Positions 2,782 through 37,440 are shown, numbered from the stretch's first letter. The stretch is 52,445 bases of DNA from Candidatus Limnocylindrales bacterium (GCA_039925225.1 JBDSZH010000050.1:1-52445), one strand, 5' to 3'. Program-made: numbers and translations. Notes: generated by a model from the sequence alone, not told the origin.

Positions 2782-4146
2782 GTGCCTCAGCCTGTGCTGA
2801 CGCCGGCCATCCGAGAAGCGATCGCCCGCCTGGAGCGGGCGGACATCATGGTCGGCATCCCGAGCTTCAAGAACGCGACGACCATCGGCTATGTCGTGCG
2901 CGCGGCTCAGGCTGGCCTCGTCCAGTACTTCCCGGATCTGCGACCCGTCGTGGTCAACTCGGACGCCGGCTCGCCGGACGGCACGCAAAGGGTTGTCGTC
3001 GACACCGAGCCGCCGGACTACGTCGAGCGGATCCTGCTCGTCCGCCCGACCAACAAGCTGGCCCGCGTCTCGCTGACCTACCCGGAGATCGACGGTACCG
3101 GCGGCAAGGGTGCCGCGCTCCGCACGATCTTCGAGATCGCCGCGGCGCTGGAGGTCCAGGCGCTGGTCGTCGTGGACTCGGACCTGCGGAGCATCGGGCC
3201 CGAGTGGATCGAGCTCCTCGCCGGCCCGATCCTGAAGGGCGGCTATGACTACGTCGCGCCGCTGTACGCGCGCCACAAGCACGACGGCACGATCACGAAC
3301 AACGTCACGTACCCGCTCACGCGCGCGCTGTACGGATTGCGCATCCGGCAGCCCATCGGCGGCGACTTCGGGGTGTCCGGCGACCTCGTCCGGCATTACC
3401 TCGAGGCGGGCTACTGGACGTCCGAGGTCTCAAAGTTCGGGATCGACGTGTGGATGACCACGCACGCCCTCACCGGCGGCTTCGCGATCTGCCAGGCGCG
3501 ACTCGGCGCAAAGGTCCACGACCCCAAGGACCCCGGCGCAGATCTGGGCCCGATGTTCCGCCAGGTCGTGACCACGATCCTGCGAATGGCCGTGGCGAAC
3601 GCCGATCGCTGGCGCCAGGTCAAGGGCAGCCACGACGTCCCGGCCTACGGCTTCGAACGGCTCGCAGACCCCCCGCCGCTCGACGTGAACGTGCTCAGGC
3701 TGTTGTCCGAGTTCAACGAGGCGGCGCTGACGATGAGCACCACCTGGAGCGAAATGCTGCCCGATGACACTGCGGCGGCCGTGCAGGGTCTCGCCGACGA
3801 GGCGGGGACCGCGGCGGACGCCGTCCGTACCGCGCTGGACCTGGGTGCGCCCGGCCAGGAACGAGCCGCTACCGCCGCGATGGCAGACGCCGCCGCGGGC
3901 TTCGGATTCCCGGATGCCGTCTGGGCCCGCGTGGTCTTCGATCTCGTGATTGCCGCCCGCGACCACCCCGACCGTCTCGAATCGTTCGTGGCTGCACTCG
4001 TGCCCGTCTACTTCGGACGAGTGGCGAGCTCGGTCATCGAGAACCGGTACCTGTCCACCGAGCGTGCCGAGGAGAGCGTGGAGCGGCAGGCGCGCGAATT
4101 CGAACGCCTGAAGCCGTATCTCGTCAATCGATGGGCGAAGGCATGA
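2782..4146 (+). CDS. GT-A fold glycosyltransferase-like protein (function unassigned)
   Basis: 454-aa ORF with 'VGIPSFKNATTIGYVV' near the N-terminus and a DXD-like 'LVVVDSDLRS'. Its 3' end overlaps the downstream gpgS-like gene by 16 nt, so the two look operonic. Confidence 0.6.
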   Translation: MPQPVLTPAIREAIARLERADIMVGIPSFKNATTIGYVVRAAQAGLVQYFPDLRPVVVNSDAGSPDGTQRVVVDTEPPDYVERILLVRPTNKLARVSLTYPEIDGTGGKGAALRTIFEIAAALEVQALVVVDSDLRSIGPEWIELLAGPILKGGYDYVAPLYARHKHDGTITNNVTYPLTRALYGLRIRQPIGGDFGVSGDLVRHYLEAGYWTSEVSKFGIDVWMTTHALTGGFAICQARLGAKVHDPKDPGADLGPMFRQVVTTILRMAVANADRWRQVKGSHDVPAYGFERLADPPPLDVNVLRLLSEFNEAALTMSTTWSEMLPDDTAAAVQGLADEAGTAADAVRTALDLGAPGQERAATAAMADAAAGFGFPDAVWARVVFDLVIAARDHPDRLESFVAALVPVYFGRVASSVIENRYLSTERAEESVERQAREFERLKPYLVNRWAKA

Positions 4147-6065
4147 CCGAGCAGCCGCTGCCCGTTCGAATCGTCATCCCGGTCGCCAACCCGGCTACCG
4201 CAGAGGAGCTGATCCGGCTCGGTGCGGACCTGCTGGATCCGCGCGGCGGCGAGCTAACCGCACTGGGCATCGTCGAGGTGCCCGAGGGTATGCCCCTGTC
4301 CGAGGGCGCAACGCGCGCGCGGCATGCGCGGCGGCTGCTCCAGCGCGTCCTCGACTTCGTGCCCGAAGGCACGCACATCCACCCGCTCGTCCGTATCGGG
4401 CGACACGCCGCGGAGGGCATCCTCGAAGCCGCCGCGGAGCTCGAGGCGGACCTCATCGTGTTCGGCTGGGGCGGCAAGTCGCCGGCCGGGCGCGACGCGG
4501 TCACGAGTCCGTTCTCCGCGACGATCGACGAAGTGCTGCGCGAGTCACCGTGCGACATCGCGGTGGTGAAGCAGCGCGGCGTGCGCGACCTCAAGCGCGT
4601 CGTCGTTCCGGTTCGGGGCGGGCCGCACGCAGAACTGGCGCTGAGGGTCGCGAGCGTGATCGCGAGGCGCCACGAAGCCGAGCTCGTCGTGCTCCACGTC
4701 GTGATGCCCGGGATCACTTCGGCCGTGCGTGCCCAGGCTGAGCGCGCCCTGACCGCATTCGTCCGCCAGCACGTGAACGGCCCCGTGGAGATGCTCGTAC
4801 GCGAGGCCTCCAACGTGCGTGCCGCCATCCTGCGCGAAGCAGACCACTCGGACATCGTCGTGATGGGCGCGGCCGTACCGACCGCCGTGAACGGCAACAC
4901 CCACGTGTTCGGCGCAATGCCGGAAGCGATCGCCATGCGCTCGAAGACCACGGTCGTCGTCGTCAAGACGCGCGAGACCATCGGGCGCCAGACCTTCGAG
5001 CAGCTCGCCACGAAGGCTGAATCGCTTATCGCCGCCGACCGCGCCGCTGAGGAATCACGCGCCGTTCCAGCCAGGGTGGAGCGCTGGTTCGGCGAGTCGA
5101 ACTTCCATCACGGCGAGTTCGCGGACCTCCGCCGGCTGGTGCAGCTCAAAGAGAAGCAGGGCCTGACCGTGAGCCTCGTGCTACCGACGCTCAACGAGGC
5201 GGACACGATCGGCCCGATCGTCCGGCGTGCGATTCGCGAGATGGTCGGCCGGGTGCCGCTGCTGGACGAGGTCCTCGTGATGGATTCGGCATCGACGGAC
5301 CGGACTCGTGAGATCGCCGAGGCGGAGGGCGCCCGAGTCGTCCAGCACCCGGATGTGCTGAGTCGATACGGCACCTTCCACGGCAAGGGCGAGTCGCTCT
5401 GGAAGTCGATGTACGAGACCAGTGGCGACATCATCGTGTGGGCGGACACGGACGTGCGGAACTGGCACCCCCGCATGGTCTACGGCACGCTCGGGCCACT
5501 CCTGCATGAGGCGCGGCTGCAGTACGTCAAAGGCTACTACCAGCGCCCGATCGTGCAGGGCGGCGTCCTTCGCGAGGGCGGCGGCGGCCGGGTCACCGAG
5601 CTCGTCGCCCGGCCGCTGATCAACCTGTTCTTCCCCGAGCTGTCCGGCTTCATCCAGCCGTTGTCCGGGGAATATGCCGGGCGGCGGTCGCTGCTCGAGC
5701 AGATCCCTTTCTTCACCGGGTATGCGGTCGAGATCGGGCACCTCATCGACGTCGCCGAGCGGGCCGGGCTCGACGGGCTCGGCCAGGTCGACCTGGAGCG
5801 ACGTGTGCATCGAAACCAGGAGCTCGAGGGCCTGTCGCGGATGAGCTTCGTGATCCTCCAGGCGGTCATGAAGCGGATCGAAGAGCGGCGCAAGGCACGG
5901 CTCTTTGCCGAGCTCGGATCCACGATGAAGCTGCCACGTTCCGGGCGGGGCCGCCTCTCGCTGGAAGTCATCGAGCTGGCCGACATGGAGCGACCACCGA
6001 TGGTCCGCATCCCCGAGTACCTCGAGCGCCGCGCGCGCACAGTCGCGGACCTGCTCACCGACTGA
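4131..6065 (+). CDS. gpgS: Fusion protein: two universal stress protein (USP) modules + glucosyl-3-phosphoglycerate synthase (GT81)
   Basis: Residues ~10-290 form two USP-like repeats ('EADLIVFGWGG', 'HSDIVVMGA'). Residues ~340-644 carry the GpgS-type core ('LVLPTLNEADTIGPIV', 'VMDSASTDRTREIA', 'GKGESLWKS', 'WADTDV'). Confidence 0.8.
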   Translation: MGEGMTEQPLPVRIVIPVANPATAEELIRLGADLLDPRGGELTALGIVEVPEGMPLSEGATRARHARRLLQRVLDFVPEGTHIHPLVRIGRHAAEGILEAAAELEADLIVFGWGGKSPAGRDAVTSPFSATIDEVLRESPCDIAVVKQRGVRDLKRVVVPVRGGPHAELALRVASVIARRHEAELVVLHVVMPGITSAVRAQAERALTAFVRQHVNGPVEMLVREASNVRAAILREADHSDIVVMGAAVPTAVNGNTHVFGAMPEAIAMRSKTTVVVVKTRETIGRQTFEQLATKAESLIAADRAAEESRAVPARVERWFGESNFHHGEFADLRRLVQLKEKQGLTVSLVLPTLNEADTIGPIVRRAIREMVGRVPLLDEVLVMDSASTDRTREIAEAEGARVVQHPDVLSRYGTFHGKGESLWKSMYETSGDIIVWADTDVRNWHPRMVYGTLGPLLHEARLQYVKGYYQRPIVQGGVLREGGGGRVTELVARPLINLFFPELSGFIQPLSGEYAGRRSLLEQIPFFTGYAVEIGHLIDVAERAGLDGLGQVDLERRVHRNQELEGLSRMSFVILQAVMKRIEERRKARLFAELGSTMKLPRSGRGRLSLEVIELADMERPPMVRIPEYLERRARTVADLLTD

Positions 6066-6322
6066 GGCCGCTGCCGCCCGCCCGCGTGTCGCGCCGCTGC
6101 CGTGGTCGACTTCCGGCTGGCGGTGGATTCGAGATGGTTCCAACGAAGCGAAACCACTTGCCTCGATGCGCACATTTGGGCCGCGGGCGGGAACTTTTGC
6201 GCTGCCTCCACGTTGGTTCCGCTTGATCGGAACCCACTCAATTTGGGCGCAAAAGGCGACCGGCGCCCGCCGCACGAGCACGAATCCGACAACCGCGGGC
6301 ATTCGTGCAACGATTCCGGACG

Positions 6323-7444
6323 ATGCGCGTCGTCATCGCTCCAGACTCGTTCAAAGGTTCGCTGACCTCGATCGAGGTTGCCACAGCGCTCGCGACTGGG
6401 TGGCTCGCCGCGCGCCCGGAGGATGAGGTCCTCCTCGCGCCGCTCGCGGACGGCGGGGAGGGCACCCTGGTCGCGATCGCGGCCGCGGGCGGGTGGGAGT
6501 GGCATACCACGCCCTCCACGGATCCGATCGGGCGACCGGTGGAAGCGCGCTGGCTCCGATCCGCCGACGGCACCCGCGCGGTCGTCGAGCTTGCCGAGGC
6601 GTCGGGGCTCTCGAGGCTCACCGTCGCCGAGCGCGATCCGATTCGGGCATCCACCTTCGGGACGGGCACCGTGTTGCTGCGGGTGATGAATGACTCGGCG
6701 ATCCAATCCATCACGCTCGGCATCGGCGGTAGCGCAACAACCGATGGCGGCGCTGGAATACTCAAGGCACTGGGCGGCTGGGGTCCCGACGGCGAAGTCG
6801 ACCTGAGCGGTGGTCTCGACCAGTGCCTCGCGGAGATCGACCTGCGGATTGCCTGCGATGTCTCGAATCCGCTCCTCGGACCAACTGGGGCGGCCGCGAC
6901 GTACGGGCCGCAGAAGGGTGCGACGCCGCCACAGGTCGCGGAGCTCGACGCCAGGCTCACGCGCTACGCCGACTCCATCCGAGCCGCAACAGGCCGCGAC
7001 GAGCGGGAGACGCCGGGGGCTGGTGCAGCCGGCGGGACCGCTTTCGGGCTGCTCTCGATCGCCAGGCACTTCCGGTCGCTTCGACTTGTCCCCGGCGTCG
7101 AGGTCGTGATGGAGGAAACGGGGCTACGCGAGAAGCTCGCGGGTGCCGATCTCGTGATCACCGGTGAAGGGCGAATCGACGCCCAGACCGCATTCGGGAA
7201 GACGGCGCTCGGCGTGGCACAGCTCGCACACCGTGTCCGCGTCGCGTGCATAGCGGTCGGTGGCGGGGTCGAGCCCGGTGGTATCGAGGCCCTCAGACCC
7301 GTCGGCGCGGTCGTCGTGCCGATCGTCGAACGACCGCAAACGGTCGAGGAGGCCATGGCGGCCGGCATCGAGCCGGTCGTCCGCTGCGGCGAGCGGCTGG
7401 CTCGGCTGGTGTCGCTGGGCAACTTGACTAAGTCCATCGACTAA
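6323..7444 (+). CDS. Glycerate kinase
   Basis: 'MRVVIAPDSFKGSLTS' is the canonical glycerate kinase N-terminus, and 'ITGEGRIDAQTAFGK' lies near the C-terminus. The ORF track starts at GTG 6305; ATG 6323 gives the conserved N-terminus. Confidence 0.85.
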   Translation: MRVVIAPDSFKGSLTSIEVATALATGWLAARPEDEVLLAPLADGGEGTLVAIAAAGGWEWHTTPSTDPIGRPVEARWLRSADGTRAVVELAEASGLSRLTVAERDPIRASTFGTGTVLLRVMNDSAIQSITLGIGGSATTDGGAGILKALGGWGPDGEVDLSGGLDQCLAEIDLRIACDVSNPLLGPTGAAATYGPQKGATPPQVAELDARLTRYADSIRAATGRDERETPGAGAAGGTAFGLLSIARHFRSLRLVPGVEVVMEETGLREKLAGADLVITGEGRIDAQTAFGKTALGVAQLAHRVRVACIAVGGGVEPGGIEALRPVGAVVVPIVERPQTVEEAMAAGIEPVVRCGERLARLVSLGNLTKSID

Positions 7445-7458
7445 GGCACGATCCAGCC

Positions 7459-7722
7459 ATGGAAAAGGTGGTCAACATTCACGAGGCGAAGACGAACTTC
7501 TCCCGCCTCATCGAGCGGGTGCGGGCCGGCGAACGAGTCGTGATCGCGAAGGCAGGGCGCCCGGTCGCGGTCCTGTCACGATACGAAGGGCGTCCCCCGC
7601 GTCGGGTACCGGGCATGGACCGGGGGCGCGTCGTGATCCATGCGAACTTCGACGATCCGGTCCCGGAGTGGGATCCGGACAACATGCACCCGGACGATCC
7701 GCTGCGCGGGCTGGTTGGATGA
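7459..7722 (+). CDS. Type II antitoxin, Phd/YefM-like
   Basis: 87 aa. 'IHEAKTNFSRLIERVRAGERVVIAKAGRPVAVL' is the typical antitoxin N-domain. Its stop overlaps the toxin start (ATGA at 7719-7722). Confidence 0.8.
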   Translation: MEKVVNIHEAKTNFSRLIERVRAGERVVIAKAGRPVAVLSRYEGRPPRRVPGMDRGRVVIHANFDDPVPEWDPDNMHPDDPLRGLVG

Positions 7723-8105
7723 AGGTCCTGATCGACTCGCACGTGTTTCTGTGGTGGGTTCTTGAGGAGCCGCGGCTGACGCCGGCCATGCGCGAGATCA
7801 TTTCGGATGGCGGCAATGAGATCTTGTTCAGCGCCGCAAGCGCGTACGAGCTCGCCTACAAGGCGGCAGACGGACGATTGACGCTGCCGGAGGATGCCCA
7901 GTCCTATATCACCGATCGACTTGACGCCAATGGCTTTGATCCGTTGCCGGTCGACATTGGCCACGCGCTGACGGCCGCACTGCTGCCGCGCATCCATCGC
8001 GATCCGTTCGACCGCCTCTTGGTGGCCCAGGCCCAGCGTGAGGGCATTCCCATCCTGACGGCGGATCCCGTGATCGCTCGGTACGACGTCGAAACCATCT
8101 CGTGA
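7719..8105 (+). CDS. vapC: PIN-domain toxin (VapC-type ribonuclease)
   Basis: 'MKVLIDSHVFLWW...', 'FSAASAYELAYK', 'DPFDRLLVAQA...PILTAD' are acidic PIN signatures. The internal ATG at 7719 was chosen over the ORF-track start 7668 because of the ATGA coupling. Confidence 0.85.
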   Translation: MKVLIDSHVFLWWVLEEPRLTPAMREIISDGGNEILFSAASAYELAYKAADGRLTLPEDAQSYITDRLDANGFDPLPVDIGHALTAALLPRIHRDPFDRLLVAQAQREGIPILTADPVIARYDVETIS

Positions 8106-17279: not shown

Positions 17280-17354
17280 GCCGACATAGCTCAGCGGTAG
17301 AGCAGCTGTTTCGTAAACAGCAGGTCCTCGGTTCAAATCCGAGTGTCGGCTCCA
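17280..17354 (+). tRNA. tRNA-Thr (anticodon CGU), CCA encoded
   Basis: Cloverleaf folded by hand: acceptor GCCGACA/TGTCGGC, D stem GCTC/GAGC, anticodon stem GCTGT/ACAGC with loop TTCGTAA, T stem CTCGG/CCGAG with loop TTCAAAT, discriminator T, then CCA. Confidence 0.9.
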
Positions 17355-17367
17355 GCTCCCCTCTTTC

Positions 17368-17412
17368 GTGCTCAGGTAGAGCAGCTATCTGCAATCAGCA
17401 CGGTCTTCGTCG
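17368..17412 (+). other. Degenerate tRNA-like fragment (D-arm-like 'gctcaggtagagcagct')
   Basis: 17370-17386 matches the tRNA-Thr D-arm region 17289-17307 except for a 2-nt gap. No acceptor stem or T-arm can be formed. Confidence 0.3.
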
Positions 17413-17519
17413 GGCGCGAGGACCTACTAGCCGGCGAAGGCCTGCTAACTGGACCGTTTCGAGGTTTCGATGCAGCCCCCTTGCCTTCGGACCACTACGG
17501 GACGTTGGTGGCTTCGGAG

Positions 17520-17711
17520 TCAGGCACTCGCGGCGCGCGCGACTCGCCGGCGGAGGATGGCCGTCAGCCGGTCGCGACGGGAGACCGGCGCGGGCTCGTT
17601 GAGCGGGAGGGCGTCGACGGCCGCGTACCGCGATCGGCGGTTCCGCTGGGCGGCGTCCCCGTAGTTGTGTTCGACGTCGATCGCGGCGAGGTACAGGGCG
17701 AAGGGGTGCAT
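17520..17711 (-). CDS. Small hypothetical protein (63 aa), divergent from the LAL regulator
   Basis: ATG preceded by 'aggagacgaac'. Third-position G/C is about 90 percent by hand count. No family recognised. Confidence 0.5.
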   Translation of the reverse strand: MHPFALYLAAIDVEHNYGDAAQRNRRSRYAAVDALPLNEPAPVSRRDRLTAILRRRVARAASA

Positions 17712-17839
17712 GTTCGTCTCCTGGCTTCTGGTCGGGTGATCTGATGCCTGGAGCGTGGCCCCTGCCTCCCTGTCTGCCATCGTGCATTCCCTTACCCGAC
17801 GATGCCGTGGACCTCATTTATCTCGCGTAGACCGACAGC

Positions 17840-20800
17840 GTGTTGTCCGGGACGGCACCCGGGCGCAATATCGCAGTCGTGCCTCGTCGAGTCTCCAGTC
17901 CGATCTTCGTTGGCCGTGTCACCGAGCGAGCGGCGCTGTCCGAGGCGCTCGAGCGCGCCGCTGCCGGTCAGCCCGGCATCGTGCTCATCAACGGCGAAGC
18001 GGGCGTGGGCAAGAGCCGCCTCCTCACCGAGGTCGCAACCCTGTCCGCCGCGATGCGGGCCACCACGGTCGGGGGACTGTGCGTGGATGTGGCCGCAGGG
18101 ACGTTTCCGTACGCGCCCTTCGTCGACATCGTGCGTGACCTGCACGGCGCTAGATTGACGGCGGCGCTCCCCGCGTCGGCGCGCGCCGAGCTCGGGCGGC
18201 TCGTTCCCGAGATCGCCCAGCAGGCCGATGGTCGATCGGATGCCGTCCAGGGTGGCCAGGGACGGCTGTTCGCGGCAGTTCGCGACCTCCTGGCCGTCGC
18301 GTCGACGTCGCGGCCGATCCTGATCACGATCGAGGACCTGCACTGGGCCGACGCGTCGACGCTCGAACTCGTGACGTATCTCGCCCGGTCGATGCAGACG
18401 GAGCACTACCTCCTCGTCGCCACCGCCCGACTGGAGACGCTTCCCCGGCGGCATCCCCTCCTGGGCATCGTCGCCGAGCTCGCGCGCCTGCCGGCGTTCG
18501 AACGGATCGACCTTGCCCGGTTCGATCGGGGCGAACTGGTCCAGCAGCTGACCGGGATCCTTGGCCGCGTACCGGATCCGGGGGTGGCGCTAAAGGTGTT
18601 CGAGCGCTCGGATGGGAATGCCTTCTTCGCCGAGGAACTCGTCGCGACGGATGCAAGCCGTGGCGGGCAGCTGCCCGCGTCGCTCCACGAGGTGCTGGCC
18701 GCACGCCTGGCGACGCTCGATGAGGTGGCACAGGGGATCGTTCGCGTGGCGGCGGTCGCCGGACGCGTCGTCAGCCACGAGCTGCTCGAAGAAGTGGGCG
18801 GGAGGCCGTCGCCGGTCCTCATCGCCGCGCTCCGAGCGGCGGTCGACCAAGGCGTGCTCCTGCGCGTCGAGGACCCCTCGCCCGGCTACGCGTTCAGGCA
18901 CGCACTCGTTCGCGAGGCCGCCACCGATGAGCTCCTCCCGACCGAGCGGGTGGCGATCCACCGCGCCATCGCCGACGCCATTGAGCGGGACCGTGCGTTG
19001 TCGCCGGCAGGCGAGCTGGCCCGGACGGGCGAGATCGCCTACCACGCGATGGCAGCGAACGACCTGTCCCGGGCGCTGACGGCGTCGCTCGCCGCCGTGG
19101 TGGTCGCCGAGGAGGCATCGGCCTACGCGGAGGCGGAGCTCCACCTGGAGCGGATCCTCGACATCTGGCCGCGGGTCGCCGACGCTGCATCCCGGGTGGG
19201 CGCGGATCATGCCGACGTCCTGGCTCGCACCGCCCGTGCCGCGGCGTCCGCCGGGCACTTGTCGCGTGCCGTCGCGCTCGCCCAGGACGCATTGGCCGAG
19301 CTGGGCCCAAGCGACACGGATCGACGGGTCGCGATCCTCCTCGAGCTGTTCGACTATGCGTGGGAGGCGGCGGAGCTCGACATCGCGGACCGCGTCGTCC
19401 CCGCGGCGATGGCCCTGCTGCGTGACGAGCGGTCTGCCCGGACCGCCGAGGCGTTCGCGGCGGAAGCGCTGCTCAGCTGGCACCAGGGTCGGTACACGAC
19501 TGCCCGCGAGTCGGCGGCACAGGCAATCGCGATCGCGCGCGAGTGCGGCGCTTCCCGGGAGCTCGCGATGGCGCTCATGATCCTCGCCCAGGTCTACGCG
19601 CACATCGGGGAAACGAACCATGCCGAGGAGTCATTCGTCGAAGCGGCAGAGATCGTGGAGTCAGTCAACGACCCTCGGCTCAGGGCGCGGACGACTCGTT
19701 CGGGGGCCTGGACCCGGTACCTGCACGGCCGTTTCGAGGAGAGCCTGGCCCTGAGTTGGGCTGGGCTCGAGATCGCGCGACGAGAGGGTGCCGACGGGCG
19801 GTACGGGGTGAACCTCCTCGACGGGGCCTTCGAGGACCTGATCGAGCTCGGTCGATGGCCGGAAGCCGAGCTCGTCGCTGATCAGATCCTGGCCAGGATG
19901 TCTCCATCCCTCGAGATGCTCGGCGTCCATATGTCGCTGGGGCGGCTGTTCACGCTCCAGGGTCGGATCGCGGACGCCGAACGAGAGATCGCCGAAGCCG
20001 AGGCGATGGCCGCGGTCGGTCCGCATCGGGTCTGGCAGCTGGAGGACGCGATTCTCCTCGCGTACGCGACCGGCCGGTACGCAGATGGGCGGGGCCTCAT
20101 GGACGCGGCGCTATCCGCCTCTCCCGAACCCGATCGCGATGCGATCCTGTGGTGGCCACTTCACAAGGCCATCGCAGGTGAGGCCGATCACGCCGATGGC
20201 GCCCGCCGCCGTCGTCGCACGGGCGAAGCGGAGCAGGCCGTCGCGGCGGGGCACCGGTTCGCGGATGCCCTCGGCACGAGCGCCCGGGCGGCGATCGAGG
20301 CCGACGGAGCCGGTCCGTTGATCCGGGCCGAACTTCGGAGCGCAGACGCGGAGATAAGCCGTCTCGATGGCCAGTCGGATCCCGCGCTGTGGGCGGCTGC
20401 GGTTGACGCTCGGCGCGAGCTCGAGCAGCTTTGGGAGCTGGCGTACGCTCGGTACCGACACGCCGAGGCGATCCTCCTGAGCGGCGGTCCCGCAAGCGAC
20501 GCAAAGCAGCCCTTGCGGCAGGCGCACGTCGTGGCGAGCGGCTTGGGTGCGGCCCCTCTCCGGATAGCCATCGAAGCGCTCGCGTCACGAGCGCGTATCC
20601 AGCTCGAGAGCGATCCGGGTAGCGTCGGGCCGGCGGCGAAGCGCCCGGCTTCTGCCCTGACCGCCCGGGAGCTCGAAGTCCTGGCACTCGTCGCGGCTGG
20701 CCATACCAACCGCGAGATCGGTGATCGCCTGTTCATCAGCGAAAAGACGGTTTCCGTGCACATCACCCACACGATGAACAAGTTGGGCGCGCTGAGTCGG

Positions 20801-20866
20801 TACGAGGCAGCCGCGGCGGCGACCCGACAAGGGTTGCTGGAGCCGGAAACGAGGACCGCTAACTGA
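17840..20866 (+). CDS. LAL-type regulator: STAND/AAA ATPase + TPR-like repeats + C-terminal LuxR HTH
   Basis: Walker A 'NGEAGVGKSRL', 'ITIEDLHWADASTLEL', 'GNAFFAEEL', and a C-terminal 'LTARELEVLALVAAGHTNREIGDRLFISEKTVSVHITHTMNKLG'. Confidence 0.85.
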   Translation: MLSGTAPGRNIAVVPRRVSSPIFVGRVTERAALSEALERAAAGQPGIVLINGEAGVGKSRLLTEVATLSAAMRATTVGGLCVDVAAGTFPYAPFVDIVRDLHGARLTAALPASARAELGRLVPEIAQQADGRSDAVQGGQGRLFAAVRDLLAVASTSRPILITIEDLHWADASTLELVTYLARSMQTEHYLLVATARLETLPRRHPLLGIVAELARLPAFERIDLARFDRGELVQQLTGILGRVPDPGVALKVFERSDGNAFFAEELVATDASRGGQLPASLHEVLAARLATLDEVAQGIVRVAAVAGRVVSHELLEEVGGRPSPVLIAALRAAVDQGVLLRVEDPSPGYAFRHALVREAATDELLPTERVAIHRAIADAIERDRALSPAGELARTGEIAYHAMAANDLSRALTASLAAVVVAEEASAYAEAELHLERILDIWPRVADAASRVGADHADVLARTARAAASAGHLSRAVALAQDALAELGPSDTDRRVAILLELFDYAWEAAELDIADRVVPAAMALLRDERSARTAEAFAAEALLSWHQGRYTTARESAAQAIAIARECGASRELAMALMILAQVYAHIGETNHAEESFVEAAEIVESVNDPRLRARTTRSGAWTRYLHGRFEESLALSWAGLEIARREGADGRYGVNLLDGAFEDLIELGRWPEAELVADQILARMSPSLEMLGVHMSLGRLFTLQGRIADAEREIAEAEAMAAVGPHRVWQLEDAILLAYATGRYADGRGLMDAALSASPEPDRDAILWWPLHKAIAGEADHADGARRRRRTGEAEQAVAAGHRFADALGTSARAAIEADGAGPLIRAELRSADAEISRLDGQSDPALWAAAVDARRELEQLWELAYARYRHAEAILLSGGPASDAKQPLRQAHVVASGLGAAPLRIAIEALASRARIQLESDPGSVGPAAKRPASALTARELEVLALVAAGHTNREIGDRLFISEKTVSVHITHTMNKLGALSRYEAAAAATRQGLLEPETRTAN

Positions 20867-20895
20867 GCGCCTTGCGCTCGCGACTCCACGCTTGT

Positions 20896-20964
20896 GCCAC
20901 AACGCTCAGGCCGATCCACTTCGTAGACAGCAGGTCCTCGGTTCAAATCCGAGTGTCGGCTCCA
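20896..20964 (+). pseudogene. Truncated/degenerate tRNA-Thr copy (3' half intact, 5' half decayed)
   Basis: 20927-20969 is identical to 17317-17359 (43 bp). It extends to 50 bp (20920-20969 vs 17310-17359) with one mismatch. The upstream 'gccacaacgctcagg' only weakly resembles the tRNA 5' half and is about 6 nt too short to fold. Confidence 0.6.
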
Positions 20965-21182
20965 GCTCCATGAAGCCCCGGCGAGGATTCGAGCAATCGA
21001 TCGCTGACGTACGATGCTGGCGTGTCCGACGCCGCGGACGTCGCGCGCGAGGATCGGCGATCAGTTCGAAGCCGTGCGCGAGGTGCTCCGGGCTCCCAGC
21101 TCATCGGTGACGTCCCTCCGCCGGCGCGAGATGCCGGTCTGGTTCCTCCGATCACGTTGTCGAGGTGCCCCTCGTCGACGGC

Positions 21183-21195: not shown

Positions 21196-24100
21196 ATGAT
21201 CGCGTGCCCGAGCTGCGGAACCGCGAACCCTGACGGCGCGCGCTTCTGCATGGCATGCGCCACGCCCCTCGAGATCCCAGGACCGAGCCGCGAGGCACGC
21301 AAGGTCGTCACGGTCGTCTTCGCGGACATCACGGGCTCGACCGGGCTCGGGGAGCGCCTCGACCCTGAATCGCTCCGGGCGATCATGGGTCGCTGGTTCG
21401 AGGCCATGCGCGCGGTGTTGGAGCACCACGGCGGCACTGTCGAGAAGTTCATCGGTGACGCCGTCGTCGCCGTCTTCGGGGTCCCGGTCGTCCACGAGGA
21501 CGATGCGCTGCGTGCGGTCCGCTCGGCGGTCGACATGGAGGCTGCGCTCCTCGAGTTGAACGTCGCACTCCGTGCGGAGCGAGACCTGGAGATCGAGATG
21601 CGCGTCGGCGTCAACACGGGCGAGGTGGTCGTTGGCGATGCGCGGGCTGGTGGCAGCCGCGCGACCGGCGACGCGGTCAACGTCGCGGCGCGGCTGCAGC
21701 AGGCTGCGGAACCCGGCGAGAGCCTGCTCGGCGATTCGACGTGGCGGCTCGTACGTGATGCGGCGGTCACCGGCGAGCCCCGCGAGGTCCACGTCAAGGG
21801 TCGGGACGAGCCCGTCATCGTGCGCCGGCTGCTGTCAGTTGACCGGTCGGCGGACGCTATCCACCGCCGCGTCGGCGGCGCAATGGTGGGCCGCGATCGC
21901 GAGCTGGGAATCCTGCGAGGGGCATACGAGCGGTCCGTCGTTGAGGAACGCTGCGTCCTGGTCACGGTCCTCGGTTCGGCCGGTGTCGGGAAGAGCCGTC
22001 TGGTCCAGGAGTTCCTTGCAAGCGCCGAGGGTGCCACGGTCCTTCGCGGCCGCTGCCTCCCGTACGGTGGCGGGATCACCTGGTATCCGGTCGCAGGGCT
22101 GCTGCGGTCTGCCGTCGGACTCGGCGAGGACGCGGAGCCGAGCGCCGTCCTCGAGCGACTGCGCAGAAGGCTCGATGGCATCACCGACGCCGACCAGATC
22201 CTCGCCAGGCTGGCCGAGCCCCTGGGCGTCACCGGCGAGCCGGCCCCGATCGAAGAGCTCGTATGGGCCATTCGCCGCTTCGTGGAGCGGGTCGCAACCG
22301 GCGGACCGGTGGTGCTTGTCATCGACGACCTGCAATGGGCGGAAGCAACGCTGCTGGATCTCGTGGAGCACCTCGCGGGGTGGGTGCACGGCGTGCCGGT
22401 TCTCCTGCTCGCGATGGCCCGACCGGAGTTGCTCGAGATTCGCGCGGGGTGGGGCGGCGGCAAGCCCGACGCGACGACGTTCCTTCTCGAGCCGCTGCCA
22501 TCCTCTGATACGGAGCAGCTCGTGCGCACCCTCCTCGAGGGCGCATCGATCCCGGCCGCCGCGGTGGCGCGCATCGCCACCGCCGCCGACGGAAACCCGC
22601 TGTACGTGGAGCAGGTCGTCGAGATGCTCCTGGACGATGGCGTCGTGCGGCGCCTTCGCGATGGCTCGCTGGAGGTGCGTGACCTCGAGACGATCTCCGT
22701 TCCGCCGACGATCCATGCGCTGCTCGCGGCTCGGCTGGATCGCCTCAGCGAAGCCGAGCGGCGCACGATCGAGCGGGCTGCGGTGGTCGGCAAGGAGTTC
22801 GGGCAGCGGGACGTCTCGGAGCTTACGCCGGCCGACGGTCGCGAAGGGTTGTCGCGCTCGCTGATGTCGCTCGTCCGAAAGGAGCTGATCCGGCCGGACC
22901 GGCGCCGCGACGATGGCGGCGAGACGTACCGCTTTCGCCATCTCCTTATCCGCGATGCGGCCTACGACAGCCTGCCCAAATCGGAGCGCGCGGACCTCCA
23001 CGAGCAGTTCGCGGACTGGCTGGATCGGGCCGTGGGCGACCGGATCGCGGACCTCGACGAGATCATCGGCTTCCACCTCGACCAGGCGCGGGCATATCGG
23101 CTGGCGCTCGGGCCGGAGGACGATCGGACGCGCAGCTTGGCGCTGCGGGCGGGTCGCCGCCTTGCAGCGGCCGGCGAGCGCGCCGCTGACCGTGAGGACC
23201 CGGTCGCTGGAGCTCGCTTGTTGACCCGCGCTGCGGACCTTCTGGTCTCCGACCCGCCTGCCCGATACCAGGCCCTGATGCTGCTGCTCTCGGTTGGTTT
23301 CCCGTTTGACTATGCCGCCGCGATGCAGGCCGCACGCCAGGCCGAGCAGGTCGGCGAGCAGCTCGGGGAGCTGGCGGCACGACGGGCATCGATCTGGGTC
23401 GCCAGCGCCCGGGCGATGACCGATCCGGACTTCCGCATATCGGACACTCGCGCGGAGACCGAGTTGGCCGCCCAGGCGTTCGAGGCAGAGGGAGACGTCG
23501 AGGGCCTCCTGGATGCCTACGCGCAGCTGAATCAGATCGACCTGGCCCTCGCGCATTGGGAGGATTCGCTCAGGTGGGCGCAGCTCGGCCTCGACCTCGC
23601 AACCCGTGCGGGACGAGAACGCATGCGCGGCACCTTTGCCATGTGGGTCTCCAACGCGCTCACCTGGGGATCCATGGACGCATCGGCAAGTATCGCGTTG
23701 ATGGAGGGACTGGTTGCCACGGCGACTCGCCGCCTGACCAAGGCTGCGATTTTCGATTCGATCGCGGTCCTGAAGGGCGTCCTCGGTGACCGGCCCGGTG
23801 CGGATGCCGCGAGAGGCGAGGCGGCCGCCATCTTCGACGAGTTGGGCCACCAGCACCGGGAGTTTCGTGACGCCTTCATGGAGTACGCGCTGGACGACTT
23901 CGGGGCCGCGGTCCGGCTGACGCGCGCCGAGGCAGCCGACCTGGAGCGGCGCGGCGACACAGGCCAACGCTCCACGATGCTCGGGCTCCAGTCTTGGACC
24001 CTGGCGCTCCTTGGCGACGATCAGGACGCGGCGGCGGCCGCGGCGACCGCGTATGCGCTGAGCGCGCCCGACGATGCCGTGTCGCAGATCCTCTGGCGAG

Positions 24101-24375
24101 CCGGACTCGGCCTTGTCGAGGCAAGGCGCGGCAACGCCGCCGAGGCGGACCGGCTCACGCACGAGGCTACCGAGGTGGCAGCGGAGACCGATTCGATGGA
24201 GGCCGGTACGGCGTGGCTCGCGCGGGCGATGGCCCTGGCCAGCCTCGGTCGCACGTCCGAGGCCAGCGACGCGGCCCGCGAGGCGCGCAGGCTGTTCGCG
24301 CTGAAGGGCTCGGTCAACGCGATGCGGCGCGCCGAGGCGCTCATCACGTCAGCTGGCAGCGCGGGACCTCGTTGA
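21196..24375 (+). CDS. Zinc-ribbon + class III adenylate/guanylate cyclase + STAND/AAA ATPase + TPR-like protein
   Basis: 'CPSCGTANPDGARFCMAC' is a zinc ribbon. 'VTVVFADITGSTGL...EKFIGDAVVAVFG...RVGVNTGEVVVGD' is the cyclase core. Walker A 'GSAGVGKSRL', 'LVIDDLQWAEATLLDL', 'GNPLYVEQ', and a long helical repeat tail follow. There is no C-terminal HTH. The start was moved from 21022 to 21196. Confidence 0.85.
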   Translation: MIACPSCGTANPDGARFCMACATPLEIPGPSREARKVVTVVFADITGSTGLGERLDPESLRAIMGRWFEAMRAVLEHHGGTVEKFIGDAVVAVFGVPVVHEDDALRAVRSAVDMEAALLELNVALRAERDLEIEMRVGVNTGEVVVGDARAGGSRATGDAVNVAARLQQAAEPGESLLGDSTWRLVRDAAVTGEPREVHVKGRDEPVIVRRLLSVDRSADAIHRRVGGAMVGRDRELGILRGAYERSVVEERCVLVTVLGSAGVGKSRLVQEFLASAEGATVLRGRCLPYGGGITWYPVAGLLRSAVGLGEDAEPSAVLERLRRRLDGITDADQILARLAEPLGVTGEPAPIEELVWAIRRFVERVATGGPVVLVIDDLQWAEATLLDLVEHLAGWVHGVPVLLLAMARPELLEIRAGWGGGKPDATTFLLEPLPSSDTEQLVRTLLEGASIPAAAVARIATAADGNPLYVEQVVEMLLDDGVVRRLRDGSLEVRDLETISVPPTIHALLAARLDRLSEAERRTIERAAVVGKEFGQRDVSELTPADGREGLSRSLMSLVRKELIRPDRRRDDGGETYRFRHLLIRDAAYDSLPKSERADLHEQFADWLDRAVGDRIADLDEIIGFHLDQARAYRLALGPEDDRTRSLALRAGRRLAAAGERAADREDPVAGARLLTRAADLLVSDPPARYQALMLLLSVGFPFDYAAAMQAARQAEQVGEQLGELAARRASIWVASARAMTDPDFRISDTRAETELAAQAFEAEGDVEGLLDAYAQLNQIDLALAHWEDSLRWAQLGLDLATRAGRERMRGTFAMWVSNALTWGSMDASASIALMEGLVATATRRLTKAAIFDSIAVLKGVLGDRPGADAARGEAAAIFDELGHQHREFRDAFMEYALDDFGAAVRLTRAEAADLERRGDTGQRSTMLGLQSWTLALLGDDQDAAAAAATAYALSAPDDAVSQILWRAGLGLVEARRGNAAEADRLTHEATEVAAETDSMEAGTAWLARAMALASLGRTSEASDAAREARRLFALKGSVNAMRRAEALITSAGSAGPR

Positions 24376-32465: not shown

Positions 32466-33737
32466 TCAGTTCGCCCGGCCCGTCTCCAGCTCGCGGATCC
32501 GGCGCGTCAGGAATGCCCGCTCAACCTGATTCGAGGTCAGGTCGAGTGCCGCTTGATACGCCACTGCGGCGGCGTCGCGCCGGCCGAGTCGGCGGAGCAG
32601 GTCCGCGCGAGCCGCGTGGAAATACGGGTACGACGCGAGACGCTCGTCGCCGTCCAGCGACTCGAGGAGGGCGAGGCCCACCGCCGGGCCGTCGGCCATC
32701 GCAACCGCGACGGCGCGGTTGAGCTCCACGACGGGCGAGGGAGCGAGACTCGCGAGGCGCCCATAGAGCGCGGCGATCTCCCGCCAGTCTGTCTCGACCG
32801 CGCTCGCTGCCGTGTCGTGGAGCGCGGCGATCGCTGCCTGGACCTGGTACGGACCGGCGCGGCCCACCCGGAGCGCGCGGTCCAGCACGGCCTGGCCCTC
32901 GACGATTTCCGCCCGGTCCCAGCGCGAGCGGTCCTGGTCCTCGAGCAGCGCCAGGTCGCCCGTGCTGCTCGTCCGCGCCTCGCGGCGTGCATCGTGCAGG
33001 AGCAGCAGCGCGAGGAGTCCGAGGCTCTCCGGCTCGTCGGGCATGAGTTCGTTCAGCAGGCGGGCGAGGCGGATCGCCTCTCCCGTCAGCTCGCGCCGGA
33101 TCAGCGCCTCGCCCTCGGCGGAGCTGTAGCCCTCGTTGAAGATCAGGTACAGAACGCGCAGGACCGCGTCGAGCCGCTCCGGGAGCGCGGCGGGCGGCGG
33201 GACCCCGTATGGGATCCCGGCGTCGCGGATCTTCCGCTTCGCTCGGACGAGCCGCTGCGCGAGCGTCACCTCTGAAACGAGGAACGCGCGGGCGATCTCC
33301 GGCGTGCTGAGGCCGCCCAGTGTGCGCAGGGTGAGCGCCACCCGCGCCTCCGGCGCGAGCGCCGGGTGGCAGCACGTGAAGATCAATCGCAGCCGGTCGT
33401 CGATGGCGTCCGTGTCGCTTGCCTCCTCCATGCCCTCACTTCCCGCGTTTGCGTCGATCTCGATCTCGCGCCGGAGCTCATCCGTCTTATCCGCGAGCCG
33501 CCGCCGGCGACGGATCCGGTCGATCGCAGCGTTTCGGGCCGTCGTCGTGATCCACGCGGCGGGGTTCCGCGGCACGCCCTGGCTCGACCACGTCTCCAGC
33601 GCCCTCGCGAACGCGTCCTGGACGGCCTCTTCGGCGAGGTCGAAGTCGCCGAGCACGCGGATGAGGGTCGCGACGACCCTGCCCGATTCCTCGCGGAACA
33701 GGCGATCGACGACCTCGTGGGCCGCGGGCGTCGTCAA
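32466..33737 (-). CDS. ECF-type sigma-70 factor with a long C-terminal extension
   Basis: Region 2 '[30 protein letters not shown]', region 4 '[34 protein letters not shown]', and a helical extension of about 230 aa. This is the usual partner of YCII genes. Confidence 0.85.
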
Positions 33738-33753
33738 GGACGCTCCGATGCCG

Positions 33754-34107
33754 TCAGCCGCCCGATTGCCCGTTGATCGGACGGACCTCGATCGAGCCCC
33801 AGGCCGCGCCCGGGCACGCCTTCGCGAGTTCGATCGCCTCGTCGAGGTCAGCCGCCTCGATCAGGTAGTAGCCGCCCAGGGCCTCCTTCGTCTCAGCGAA
33901 GGGACCATCCGTGATCAACATTTGGCCGTCACGGACGCGAATGGTCGTCGCCGTCGTGGTGGGCTCCAGCTCGTCACCATCGACGAAGGCGCCCCGCTCG
34001 CGGAGCATGCCCGTGTACGCGCGATACGTCGTTCGGATTTCGTCCAGCGGCGCCGGGGGCGGCGTGCTCGTCGGTTCCTCGCTGTAGATGAGGACCAGGT
34101 AGCGCAT
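33754..34107 (-). CDS. YCII-related (DGPF) domain protein
   Basis: 'MRYLVLIY' and '[21 protein letters not shown]'. Confidence 0.85.
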
Positions 34108-34186
34108 GGCTTCCTCCGGATGCGTCGCGGCGGCATCGCCGCGTTCACCGAAACGACGAACGGACCGACCGGAATCGACAGCACGC

Positions 34187-34192
34187 TAGCAT
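34187..34192 (+). promoter_or_regulatory. -10-like hexamer TAGCAT 6 nt upstream of ATG 34199
   Basis: 'gcTAGCATccgggcATG'. Confidence 0.45.
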
Positions 34193-34198
34193 CCGGGC

Positions 34199-35674
34199 AT
34201 GCCCAAGGAACAGGAGGTCCTGCGGATCGGGGATCGCGAGGTCACGGTCACCAATCCGGGCAAGATCTTCTTCGATGCGATCGGGGCGACGAAGCTGGAC
34301 CTCGTTCGCTACTACCTCGCGGTAGCGCCAGGCGCCCTGACCGGTGCGGGCGGCCGCCCGATGGCGCTCAAGCGCTTCGTGAACGGGGCGGCGGGCGAGG
34401 CGTTCTTCCAGAAGCGGGCACCGGACAACCGGCCGGAGTGGCTGCGCACGGTCACGCTGTCATTCCCGTCCGGTCGAACCGCCGACGAGATCGTCGTCGA
34501 GGACGCGGCGGGTCTTGCCTGGATCGTGAACCTCGGCTGCCTGGACCTCAATCCGCACCCGGTGCGCGCCGATGACCTCGATCACCCCGACGAGTTGCGC
34601 GTTGATCTTGACCCCGTTCCGGGTGTTGGCTGGGCGCAGATCCGCGACGTCGCGATGGTCACCAAGGAGTCGCTCGAGGCCGTCGGACTCACCGGCTGGC
34701 CGAAGACCTCTGGCTCGCGGGGCATTCACGTCAACGTGCGCCTAGAGCGGCGCTGGACGTACCCGGAGGTCCGACGCGCCGCGCTGGCGATCGCTCGCGA
34801 CGTCGAACGGCGGGCGCCGGCGATCGCCACGTCGAAGTGGTGGAAGGAGGAGCGCCACGGCGTCTTCCTCGACTACAACCAGAACGCCAAGGACCGCACG
34901 GTAGCCTCGGCGTACTCCGTGCGGCCGCTGCCGGACGCGCGTGTGTCGACGCCCCTGTCGTGGGACGAGGTGCCCACAGCCGAGGCCGAGGCATTCACGA
35001 TCTCCACCGTGCCGGCACGGTTCGCCGCGATCGGCGATCCGGGAGCGGGCATCGACGGGGCAGTAGGCTCGCTCGAGGCGCTGCTGGAGCTCTCGCATCG
35101 CGACGAGGCGGAGGGTCTGGGGGACGCGCCATGGCCGCCCAATTATCGGAAGCAGGAGGGTGAGCCGCCGCGCGTGCAACCGTCGCGCCAGCGCCGCGCC
35201 ACCGCTGAGTACGACACGCCGGAGGCCGAGGCGGACCGCGAGAAGAACCGCGCCGCGATGGAGAAACGCTTCACCGCGGAGCTGGAGCGCCGAGCTGCGG
35301 CGAAGGCCTCGGGCGAGGCAACACCCGCCACCCGGCCAACGCCAACCGGACGCCGCAAGTCAACGGTGCCGGTCATCGAGATCTCGCGCGCGAAGTCGAA
35401 GGCAGCGGCACTGGAAGGGCTGGAGCGCTGGAAGGTTCGCCACCCGGAGGCAGCTGCGGCACTCAAGGAGCCGGACGTGCTCGTCGACGGTATGCGCGGC
35501 CGATCGTCGCTCTGGTACCGGGTCCGCGTGAATCTCACCCACGTGCCAGAACCTGATCGGCCGGCGCAGGACGCGCTCGACCCTGACTACGACCCGTGGG
35601 CCGAGTATGCGTTTCCCGATCGCGTCGGGCAGGCGGAGCGCGCACCGCGAACGCGGCGCGCGCCCGGAAGCTGA
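34199..35674 (+). CDS. ligD: NHEJ polymerase/primase (LigD-Pol domain) with a ~170-aa C-terminal extension
   Basis: 'VTNPGKIFF', 'KLDLVRYY', 'FFQKRAP' and 'WPKTSGSRGIHVNV'. The tail beyond about aa 320 is charged and of unassigned family. Confidence 0.85.
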   Translation: MPKEQEVLRIGDREVTVTNPGKIFFDAIGATKLDLVRYYLAVAPGALTGAGGRPMALKRFVNGAAGEAFFQKRAPDNRPEWLRTVTLSFPSGRTADEIVVEDAAGLAWIVNLGCLDLNPHPVRADDLDHPDELRVDLDPVPGVGWAQIRDVAMVTKESLEAVGLTGWPKTSGSRGIHVNVRLERRWTYPEVRRAALAIARDVERRAPAIATSKWWKEERHGVFLDYNQNAKDRTVASAYSVRPLPDARVSTPLSWDEVPTAEAEAFTISTVPARFAAIGDPGAGIDGAVGSLEALLELSHRDEAEGLGDAPWPPNYRKQEGEPPRVQPSRQRRATAEYDTPEAEADREKNRAAMEKRFTAELERRAAAKASGEATPATRPTPTGRRKSTVPVIEISRAKSKAAALEGLERWKVRHPEAAAALKEPDVLVDGMRGRSSLWYRVRVNLTHVPEPDRPAQDALDPDYDPWAEYAFPDRVGQAERAPRTRRAPGS

Positions 35675-35678
35675 GTCG

Positions 35679-36305
35679 CTAGGCGGTCTTGTTCCGCCAG
35701 AACATCAACAGCACGACGACAACGTACACGTGGATGCCGAGCATCACGAGCACGAACCCGATGCCGCTGCTGGCTCCGCTGGAGCTGCCGCCGCCCGTGA
35801 GGCTCAGGAGCCAGAACAGGCCGCTGAGAATGCCCACGATCAGGCCCATTACGCGGCCCCAGCCACGTGAGCGAACGATGCCGATACCGCCGAGCAGGTA
35901 CACGAGGCTGTAGACGACGACCACGATGCCGACGAACGCGAGGAAGCCGCTGACCACGGCAGCGGGATCGTTGAGCCCGCTGCCCGTGAAATCGCCTCCG
36001 AACTGGTCCAGATCGAGCTGGCCGACGATCGTCGAGCCAAAAACGGTGATCATGAGACCGAGAAGGCCGCCGAGGATCCCGAGGAGGATCAGCAGGACAC
36101 CGGCGATCGCCGCGAGCGTGGTCCGCCCGCCCTTGGCAACGGCAACAACTGGTGCAGCACCCCAGGCGACCGGCGGCGGCATGATCGGCGGCGGCATGAT
36201 CGGCGGCGGCGGCGCGGGCGCCGCTGCCTGCTCCACGAGTGGCGCCAAAGGCGGTGGATCCGCGCTGGGTGTGGGCTCGCCCGCGGGCGTCTGCTCGTCG
36301 GTCAT
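35679..36305 (-). CDS. Membrane protein with a Pro-rich N-terminus (PPPIM repeats), unknown function
   Basis: 'PPPPIMPPPIMPPP' followed by about 4 TM segments. The ATG overlaps the ligase stop (ATGA). Confidence 0.6.
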   Translation of the reverse strand: MTDEQTPAGEPTPSADPPPLAPLVEQAAAPAPPPPIMPPPIMPPPVAWGAAPVVAVAKGGRTTLAAIAGVLLILLGILGGLLGLMITVFGSTIVGQLDLDQFGGDFTGSGLNDPAAVVSGFLAFVGIVVVVYSLVYLLGGIGIVRSRGWGRVMGLIVGILSGLFWLLSLTGGGSSSGASSGIGFVLVMLGIHVYVVVVLLMFWRNKTA

Positions 36306-37399: not shown

Positions 37400-37428
37400 C
37401 GCGCCACGGTACCCCAGGCGACGGCGGC

Positions 37429-37434: not shown

Positions 37435-37440
37435 TCGCCC

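Follow-up and report, generated by a model that had tools for sequence, protein, structure and literature searches.

Actinomycete integrative elements such as pSAM2 and SLP1 have att sites in which the identity segment takes in a tRNA gene, starting at the anticodon loop and continuing to its 3' end. Islands that keep attL and attR after the loss of their integration and transfer genes are known as cis-mobilizable elements (CIMEs; PMC5704250, citing Pavlovic 2004 and Bellanger 2011), and the Islander collection of tDNA islands, which requires an integrase gene inside the island, recognizes the anticodon loop as crossover class "A" (PMC4383910; Williams 2002 cited there). Here we analyze a complete 52,445-nt contig, referred to below as the window, from a metagenome-assembled genome (MAG) of "Candidatus Limnocylindrales bacterium" (Chloroflexota; protein P0001 matches at 100%). 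In it, a 3.6-kb segment with a LAL regulator (large ATP-binding regulator of the LuxR family) is bracketed by an intact tRNA-Thr(CGT) gene and a displaced copy of the 3' half of that gene. The segment is probably what remains of a decayed integrative element that lost its integrase, a CIME-type island at a tRNA-Thr(CGT) hot spot.

The bracketed segment and its ends

The single tRNA in the whole window is an intact tRNA-Thr(CGT) on the plus strand at 17280 to 17354 (ARAGORN; Rfam agrees, RF00005, 72.6 bits), which would be the regenerated target with the attL core inside it. The last 45 nt of this gene plus the 5 nt beyond it (copy 1, 17310 to 17359) recur in direct orientation at 20920 to 20969 (copy 2, the putative attR core), both on the plus strand, with 98% identity and one mismatch, A17316 versus G20926. 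Zero such repeats are expected by chance; the 38-mer core has exactly two occurrences in the window, a number matched by 0 of 100 shuffles. On the cloverleaf, the 50-mer opens with the initial nucleotide of the anticodon loop (TTCGTAA), while the exact 43-mer within it runs from 17317, where the 3' strand of the anticodon stem begins, to the fifth nucleotide beyond the CCA. A first-pass annotation of this DNA had described the exact 43-bp repeat, its extension to 50 bp with one mismatch, and the span of the first copy from the 3' strand of the anticodon stem to 5 nt after the CCA, all of which was borne out by the repeat search, an exact DNA search, and the sequence itself. ARAGORN, which it had proposed to run on both copies, calls copy 1 a tRNA-Thr and leaves copy 2 uncalled, as does Rfam.

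Only a 63-aa open reading frame (ORF) and the LAL regulator lie between the repeat copies. The first-pass annotation had stated as much, and Pfam scans and jackhmmer agree with it: no integrase was found in the segment or elsewhere in the 52-kb window by Pfam on ORFs or jackhmmer on all six-frame ORFs. The LAL gene (17879 to 20866, plus strand; 100% match to the 995-aa P0001) encodes the three parts that define such regulators, namely, an N-terminal AAA/STAND (signal transduction ATPase with numerous domains) nucleoside triphosphatase (NTPase) domain, central tetratricopeptide repeats (TPRs), and a C-terminal LuxR-type helix-turn-helix; the Pfam matches are AAA_16 at residues 23 to 193 (4.9e-29), TPR_12/TPR_MalT at 460 to 638, and GerE at 939 to 992 (7.1e-20). 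The 63-aa ORF (MHPF...; 17520 to 17711, minus strand) has its own ribosome-binding site and ATG and no Pfam hit, and is a conserved partner of LAL; a role as excisionase was supported by none of the tests run.

Conserved arms, a tRNA-Thr hot spot, and exchange at the anticodon loop

Repeat copy 2 is the end of a conserved noncoding module, here called X, in which an arm of ~75 to 190 nt precedes the tRNA 3' half. At least 133 X loci were collected (13 genome loci and at least 120 metagenome contigs), and alignments of 13 and of 105 copies were made. The layout of X is ...GGGTACGATG..CGACCATCGCG..ACCTCGGAGG...CGAAACGAAGACCTGCTAACTGAGCGGCCTACGCTCGC.ATTCCACGCTTGTGCCACAACGCTTAGGCCGATCTAC, with the tRNA 3' half directly after; pairwise identity falls from 87% in the 30 nt adjoining the core to 82% in the following 45 nt and 55% farther out. 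The X arm of the window (20846 to 20919, plus strand, P type) contains the motif GAGGACC-GCTAACTG (20851 to 20865) and the block CCACGCTTGTGCCACAACGCTCAGGCCGATCCAC. It is truncated at about -125, keeping only the proximal ~75 nt, and the final LAL codons extend into it, the reading frame stopping in GCTAACTGA. The upstream half of X is similarly absent, with the LAL gene in its place and the remainder retained, in three loci of relatives (L010, L243, and L002; loci of relatives carry L numbers throughout). The X pattern had 0 matches in viral_contigs. Two other readings of parts of X were rejected: a small ORF ending ...RRPAN* within X had an inconsistent start codon and frame, and the similarity required for a derivation of the X arm from the tRNA 5' half was not significant. 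In particular, the weak resemblance to the tRNA 5' half that the first-pass annotation had seen in gccacaacgctcagg upstream of copy 2 is not above chance, the window version giving p = 0.055 and the family consensus p = 0.5 in local alignments against 5000 shuffles.

The intact tRNA gene is followed by a second arm, here called T (17355 to 17455, plus strand, P' type). In the window it has the conserved trailer CTCCCC..TTTCGTGCTCAGG, an inverted repeat (CGTGCT at 17367 to 17372 and AGCACG at 17397 to 17402), and two motif copies, a degenerate GAGGACCTACTAG (17418 to 17430) and GAAGGCCTGCTAACTG (17436 to 17451). Across relatives, T reads CTCCCCCGTTTCGTGCTCAGGAAGA..., followed by the CGTGCT/AGCACG inverted repeat and then one to three copies of the 16-nt motif GAAGACCTGCTAACTG. 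T occurs after many intact tRNAs and many X copies, and in many relatives the trailer and motif lie 20 to 200 nt beyond tRNA or fragment ends, always on the tRNA strand. The same 16-nt motif is present in every X at a fixed position 115 nt before the CCA end, again always on the tRNA strand; the 16-mer search of the window gave one match, the T-arm copy at 17436 to 17451. A motif common to both arms and located inward of each core is how arm-type integrase sites are arranged, so that, judged from sequence, the two ends would be attL (B-O-P') and attR (P-O-B'). By the same token, X followed by T would be the P-O-P' junction expected within tandem arrays (attP configuration).

That tRNA-Thr(CGT) is an integration hot spot of Limnocylindrales chromosomes emerged from a scan for the 38-mer in one genome per GTDB species, which gave at least 119 stretches. 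Among the matches listed, nearly all came from Limnocylindrales-like MAGs, about two-thirds being intact tRNA-Thr genes and about one-third fragments, and in nearly all fragments the tRNA identity starts at the anticodon loop, regardless of the upstream sequence. Several contigs have two or three copies of the tRNA-Thr core; in one of them (L021 and L090), an intact tRNA-Thr at ~295.9 kb is accompanied by fragments at ~320.9 and ~327.4 kb. Tyrosine integrases (PF00589) are encoded directly beside tRNA-Thr or its fragments in L011, L041, L044, L049, L118, L025, L157, L161, L201, and L224, and decayed integrase genes are found in L004, L014, and L089. On a 564-kb contig (L001 and L044), the integrase gene follows the intact tRNA, and a ~15.6-kb island separates the tRNA from the fragment. 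The integrase-bearing islands share the tRNA-Thr core with the X loci and have TGACCCCT direct repeats in both arms, which are matched by the GAAGACCTGCTAACTG motif of the X and T arms. The anatomy of the tRNA-Thr islands in relatives is that of textbook class-A (anticodon-loop) tDNA islands (PMC4383910). As a separate observation, several displaced fragments belonging to more than one class (20926 in the window, L006, L065, L081, L090, L146, L182, and L209) have G rather than A at position 38, the final nucleotide of the anticodon loop, which is never G in an intact tRNA gene; this G38 may be an edge marker of the crossover region or a sign of relaxed selection on fragments.

To the right of module X, the flank is of the T type in 33 cases, T2 in 8, an integrase-type arm in 7, and other sequence in 73. 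X-T junctions occur in L019, L068, L071, L084, and L162; the arm of an integrase-bearing island stands directly after X in L157, L161, L201, L224, and L136; and L162, L164, L192, and L225 contain arrays of two or three X copies with short units of 0.6 to 1.6 kb. The shortest unit (L162, 60 to 800) is almost free of cargo and consists of a T arm, a possible ORF for a 42-aa hydrophobic peptide, an X arm, and then T again.

Sequence variants of the tRNA 3' half reveal exchange at the anticodon loop. The X 3' half is identical to that of the tRNA in 82 of 130 complete copies, and 11 to 14 of the 130 carry a variant allele, V, with two compensatory T-stem pair changes (the T-stem alleles being CTCGG/CCGAG versus CGCAG/CTGCG, plus an A>G change in the T loop). 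Allele V is linked to a trailer of its own, T2, in at least 7 of 13 copies, compared with 3 of 216 for the reference allele, R. Both L133 and L196 combine, each within one contig, the tRNA 5' half with R and T and the X arm with V and T2, and L172 shows the reverse, with the allele-trailer sets exchanged between tRNA and X. Units of 3' half plus trailer have thus been swapped between the tRNA 5' half and the X arm, and the anticodon loop is where they are joined. Such swaps of R+T and V+T2 are predicted by a reciprocal exchange in the loop and not by in situ duplication or gene conversion.

The repeat, the anatomy of the arms, the position of the crossover, the recombinant allele/tail combinations, the polymorphic cargo, and the missing integrase are direct observations. 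In the scenario that we favor, a circular element would have carried an attP made up of the X arm, a copy of tRNA-Thr from the anticodon loop to the CCA, and the T arm. A tyrosine integrase, whose identity we infer along with the original content of the element and the present function of its sites, would have recombined this attP with the chromosomal tRNA gene by crossover in the anticodon loop. The attL product (tRNA 5' half, element 3' half, and T arm) would correspond to 17280 to 17455 and the attR product (X arm and displaced chromosomal 3' half) to 20846 to 20969. Later deletions would have stripped all but the 63-aa ORF and LAL and trimmed the X arm until the LAL frame entered it, and the arrangement would have been inherited vertically since then. 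Excision today would need an integrase in trans; it would be predicted to leave an attB with 17280 to 17354 joined to 20965 onwards (...GGCTCCAGCTCCATGAAGCCCC) and to release an attP composed of 20846 to 20919, the core, and 17355 onwards (...GATCCACTTCGTA[A/G]ACAGC...CTCCAGCTCCCCTCTTTCGTGCTCAGG).

Cargo, history of the LAL segment, and rival explanations

Among the matches listed, 24 contigs have an intact tRNA-Thr and X in the same orientation, at spacings from 636 nt (L162) to 11 kb (L123), and the cargo between them differs almost every time. It includes LAL (window, L002, L010, and also L243/L244), a second LAL-like gene (L181), a sulfatase/maturase cluster (L123), an SLFN-AlbA_2 ATPase with a TOTE primase-helicase and a toxin-antitoxin-like pair (L175 and L195), and a DUF6036 nucleotidyltransferase and MarR, found either with a 1521-aa nSTAND protein (L135 and L153) or as a pair with the TOTE helicase (L071 and L022), as well as GMC oxidoreductase, PLP decarboxylase, glyoxalase, and AraC/LysE/MFS genes. 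LAL precedes X in the window, L002, L010, and L243/L244 alone, and does so in 0 of the 120 metagenome X contigs listed. The integrase islands that relatives carry after the same tRNA and the polymorphic content between tRNA and fragment support the attL/attR island model of the first-pass annotation. Its view of the locus as a regulator hot spot holds in part: AAA_16 STAND regulators are the commonest gene family beside X, at 19 loci and in 15 of these immediately upstream, but the bulk of the cargo is nonregulatory. Defence-type genes are often present in the interval in mosaic combinations (L071, L022, L135, L153, L175, L195, and L123), among them a two-gene pair (129 and 109 aa) adjoining X. 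In one MAG (L082, 450 to 3482), a full-length leucyl-tRNA synthetase is the sole gene between the intact tRNA-Thr and X.

The LAL segment itself can be followed through its orthologs, which are 57 to 84% identical, the paralog tier lying at ~42%. A small ORF of 63 to 65 aa adjoins LAL in every context examined, including those without tRNA-Thr. The architecture of L010 is the same as that of the window. L243/L244 (76% identity) contains, in order, tRNA-Thr, T, an extra hydrolase, the small ORF, LAL, and X, with the same LAL/X junction as the window. In L002, LAL has its own stop codon, the X arm begins at about -75, and a remnant arm of an integrase-type island follows the tRNA. L001 (81 to 83% identity) has LAL 8 kb beyond the fragment that closes the 15.6-kb island, with no X after it, and L242 has no tRNA within 10 kb of LAL and no att-like repeats around it. 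In the outgroup L245 (62% identity), the small ORF and LAL lie between tRNA-Pro(CGG) and a 16-nt repeat of its 3' end. The neighbor-joining tree of LAL, ((window,(L002,L001)),(L243,L010),L242) with L245 as the outgroup, indicates that the tRNA-Thr...LAL-X arrangement is ancestral to the clade, was inherited vertically, and was secondarily lost in L001, and the brackets at tRNA-Pro and at tRNA-Thr indicate that the LAL pair was att-bracketed cargo at two different tRNAs. The island model gains further from the LAL pair without a following tRNA-Thr fragment in L001 and L242 and bracketed by tRNA-Pro repeats in L245. Two things had escaped the first-pass annotation: copy 2 is part of a widespread module, and the arrangement is ancient and vertical rather than a recent insertion.

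Orientation of the small ORF varies. It is on the minus strand, pointing away from LAL, in the window (17520 to 17711) and L243 (9642 to 9833), as in L010, and on the plus strand, in the same direction as LAL, in L001 (9790 to 9981), L002 (9736 to 9927), L242 (9777 to 9968), and L245 (9753 to 9950). Window positions 17686 to 17819 match L002 in reverse (blastn), and no inverted repeats that might explain an inversion were found flanking the small ORF of the window. In L245 (9301 to 22362), tRNA-Pro(CGG) is followed by two tandem integrase-less segments of 4 kb and 9 kb, each closed by a similar ~60-nt arm and 16 nt repeated from the tRNA-Pro 3' end (CCTCTCGCCCCGACCA); the second segment encodes another AAA_16/GerE regulator together with DUF3558/DUF8403 genes.

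Several observations weigh against a decayed integrative element. None of the 24 complete tRNA-to-X intervals (0/24) contains an integrase, and an integrase matching the X/T arms was not found, jackhmmer with three local PF00589 seeds returning only other island types; clustering of more than 900 ORFs revealed no recurrent recombinase family near X. The proximal 75 nt of the X arm are kept at 82 to 87% identity across many contexts, which is more than expected of a dead scar. Composition of the segment, for which the first-pass annotation had suggested a comparison of GC skew and codon usage with its neighbors, is like theirs (GC of 0.66 to 0.71; GC at third codon positions [GC3] of 0.83 in both), with no anomaly. 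No empty site, in which the tRNA would lead directly into the cyclase gene, was found, and three cyclase-ortholog loci (P0122, P0132, and P0134) are without the tRNA-Thr core; in the window this gene is the first to the right of the bracketed segment (21196 to 24375, plus strand; zinc-ribbon/adenylate cyclase/AAA_16/TPR protein by Pfam, 100% match to the 1059-aa P0121). X-linked LAL copies occur in both subclades of the tree, and the wider neighborhood downstream of LAL (ECF [extracytoplasmic function] sigma factor/DUF6596, YCII, and LigD) is conserved in the window, L001, and L243/L244. The arrangement is thus an old one handed down vertically, and this particular segment is not demonstrated to be mobile.

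Some of these points are what would be expected if X arm, tRNA-Thr 3' half, and T arm were living att sites, at which a tyrosine integrase encoded at another place in the genome would bring about the insertion, excision, and shuffling of integrase-less segments. Cargo is hypervariable in spite of the missing integrases, the multi-X arrays and very short units and the attP-like X-T junctions fit such traffic, the X arm is conserved beyond what a scar would require, and the integrase-island arm right after X in five contigs implies integration involving the X core. However, the matching integrase is not identified; the cargo is mosaic rather than discrete, with TOTE helicase, toxin-antitoxin pair, and nucleotidyltransferase-MarR pair combining variously; the LAL-X junction is stable across 76 to 89% protein divergence; and the LAL/X junctions of the window and L002 look like deletion products. 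We therefore regard living att sites as an unlikely explanation, and it is equally doubtful that the locus represents a so far undescribed, still active Limnocylindrales system of which the LAL segment of the window would be one fixed cassette.

Much less likely are three explanations that dispense with site-specific integration of an element. Conserved blocks to either side of hypervariable DNA are the usual picture at replacement hot spots, and the cargo is like the host in composition, so that tRNA + T and X + T might be mere homology arms for RecA-dependent recombination that exchanges the cargo for DNA taken up from relatives; this is distinctly improbable, as it leaves unexplained the exact onset of tRNA identity at the anticodon loop, common to X and all other fragment classes, the motifs of the arms, and the hybrid R+T and V+T2 sets with a loop junction. 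An origin of X as a small-RNA gene with a tRNA-like 3' end from an old duplication, the intervening DNA being ordinary genome flux, is very improbable. It would account for a -10-like TACGAT box ~185 nt upstream of the CCA, for the conservation of the 190 nt after TACGAT up to an intact T arm, acceptor strand, and CCA, and for the repeated pairing of GAAGACCUGCU with AGCAGGUCCUC in single-sequence folds, a long-range helix whose tRNA side is invariant. Rfam covariance searches of the window region and five X loci, however, gave tRNA only and no family for X; in RNAalifold on the 105 copies, support is confined to the T arm and a 3-bp hairpin (covariation term, -0.24 kcal/mol), with no covariation outside the tRNA-derived T stem. 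The lack of covariation and of an Rfam match makes X a better fit for a DNA site than for an RNA gene; moreover, LAL replaces the upstream half of X in four loci with the rest kept, and the allele/tail swaps require recombination at the loop. The first-pass annotation had held that a unit of tRNA-Thr + STAND ATPase, duplicated in tandem long ago and with its second tRNA since decayed in the 5' half, would fit equally well, and had proposed to judge this by the kinship of the two STAND genes and by similarity beyond the core. Both repeat copies do precede genes with an AAA_16 NTPase and TPRs, and a few X copies have TCTGT ahead of the loop where the tRNA reads GCTGT, but LAL and the cyclase-STAND protein are only 29% identical over 414 aa, in the NTPase region alone, with different domain architectures; LAL has far closer relatives, and there is no significant upstream similarity. 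More than 100 loci have X behind unrelated genes, some genomes differ in allele and trailer between the intact tRNA and X, and a perfect 3' half beside an unrelated 5' side marks a recombination junction, since uniform decay would leave no such sharp boundary. Duplication is refuted by the annotation's own criteria and is the least credible of all, and a decayed integrative element remains the explanation that we prefer.

The remainder of the window is ordinary chromosome, with genes for a Tad pilus, CvpA, DsbD-thioredoxin, DM13, GDSL, PGA_cap, VanY, an ECF sigma factor, LigD/ligase, L25, and HtrA; Tad genes also lie upstream in L002 as in the window. At 32466 to 37471, 11 to 16 kb downstream of LAL, a block that is syntenic with L001 and L243/L244 encodes the DUF6596-containing ECF sigma factor and a nonhomologous end-joining pair, namely, a LigD primase-polymerase and an ATP-dependent ligase. 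Zero ORFs passed the GC3 filter at 4146 to 8042 and 42771 to 45923. One cyclase-ortholog locus (L247, 1051 to 4442) has a PadR + 257-aa pair like that upstream of tRNA-Thr in L243, together with a 63-aa ORF and no tRNA-Thr core, and the rest of this locus is rich in PIN/PhdYeFM/ParE toxin-antitoxin genes.

Comparison with described islands and cassette systems

For the window alone the result is modest, in that it decides between the two models of the first-pass annotation and places LAL in a stably inherited decayed island. This type of scar is already known, and the widespread X module at the right end is the main by-product. One tRNA-Thr gene anchors a hypervariable locus in an abundant uncultured Chloroflexota class of soil and freshwater, and X (~120 to 190 nt) marks the far end of this locus, a sequence tag by which accessory and defence-gene islands are easily located in fragmentary metagenomes. 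Should a matching integrase act in trans, the locus would be a natural cassette-exchange system, integron-like on tRNA-derived att sites, with cassette segments of defence, metabolic, and regulatory genes exchanged at tRNA-Thr.

Integron cassette arrays can be compared by analogy only. Like the X loci, they combine recombinase-less segments with a conserved end module and a fixed start of the array. Unlike in integrons, no intI-like gene stands beside the array, the att sites are tRNA-derived duplexes with arms rather than folded attC hairpins, and the cargo is often multigene and mosaic.

The actinomycete elements resemble the tRNA-Thr locus in their high-G+C hosts and in the repeated arm-type motifs of their att arms. 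Int, Xis, and replication or transfer functions, all of which those elements encode, are absent from the segment.

Compared with Islander islands, the segment has the same ends, a regenerated tRNA and a displaced 3' fragment with identity from the anticodon loop to the 3' end. The intact tRNA and its cognate fragment are on the same replicon in direct orientation, and among the canonical crossover positions (anticodon loop, T loop, and T/acceptor junction), 17310 falls in the anticodon loop, class A. The segment differs in having no tyrosine or serine integrase inside (Pfam and jackhmmer), and Islander would filter it out.

The closest counterpart is the CIME, as known from the islands related to ICESt1 and ICESt3 of Streptococcus thermophilus, which like the segment are flanked by att sites and have no integration or transfer genes. 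In the window, the core repeats are kept with conserved arms and a common motif on the inner side of each core, and nothing but LAL and the 63-aa ORF is left between the sites. The tandem accretion of CIMEs also has its parallel, since relatives show arrays in which an integrase element abuts the att site of a decayed element. Unlike for CIMEs, descent from an integrative and conjugative or an integrative and mobilizable element and mobilization in cis are not deducible from sequence here, as no conjugation or mobilization gene is left. In contrast to the CIMEs of S. thermophilus, the host is an uncultured member of the Chloroflexota and the target is a tRNA anticodon loop instead of the 3' end of a protein-coding gene. 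In addition, more than 100 different cargos share the conserved P-type arm, a feature that has not been described for CIMEs.

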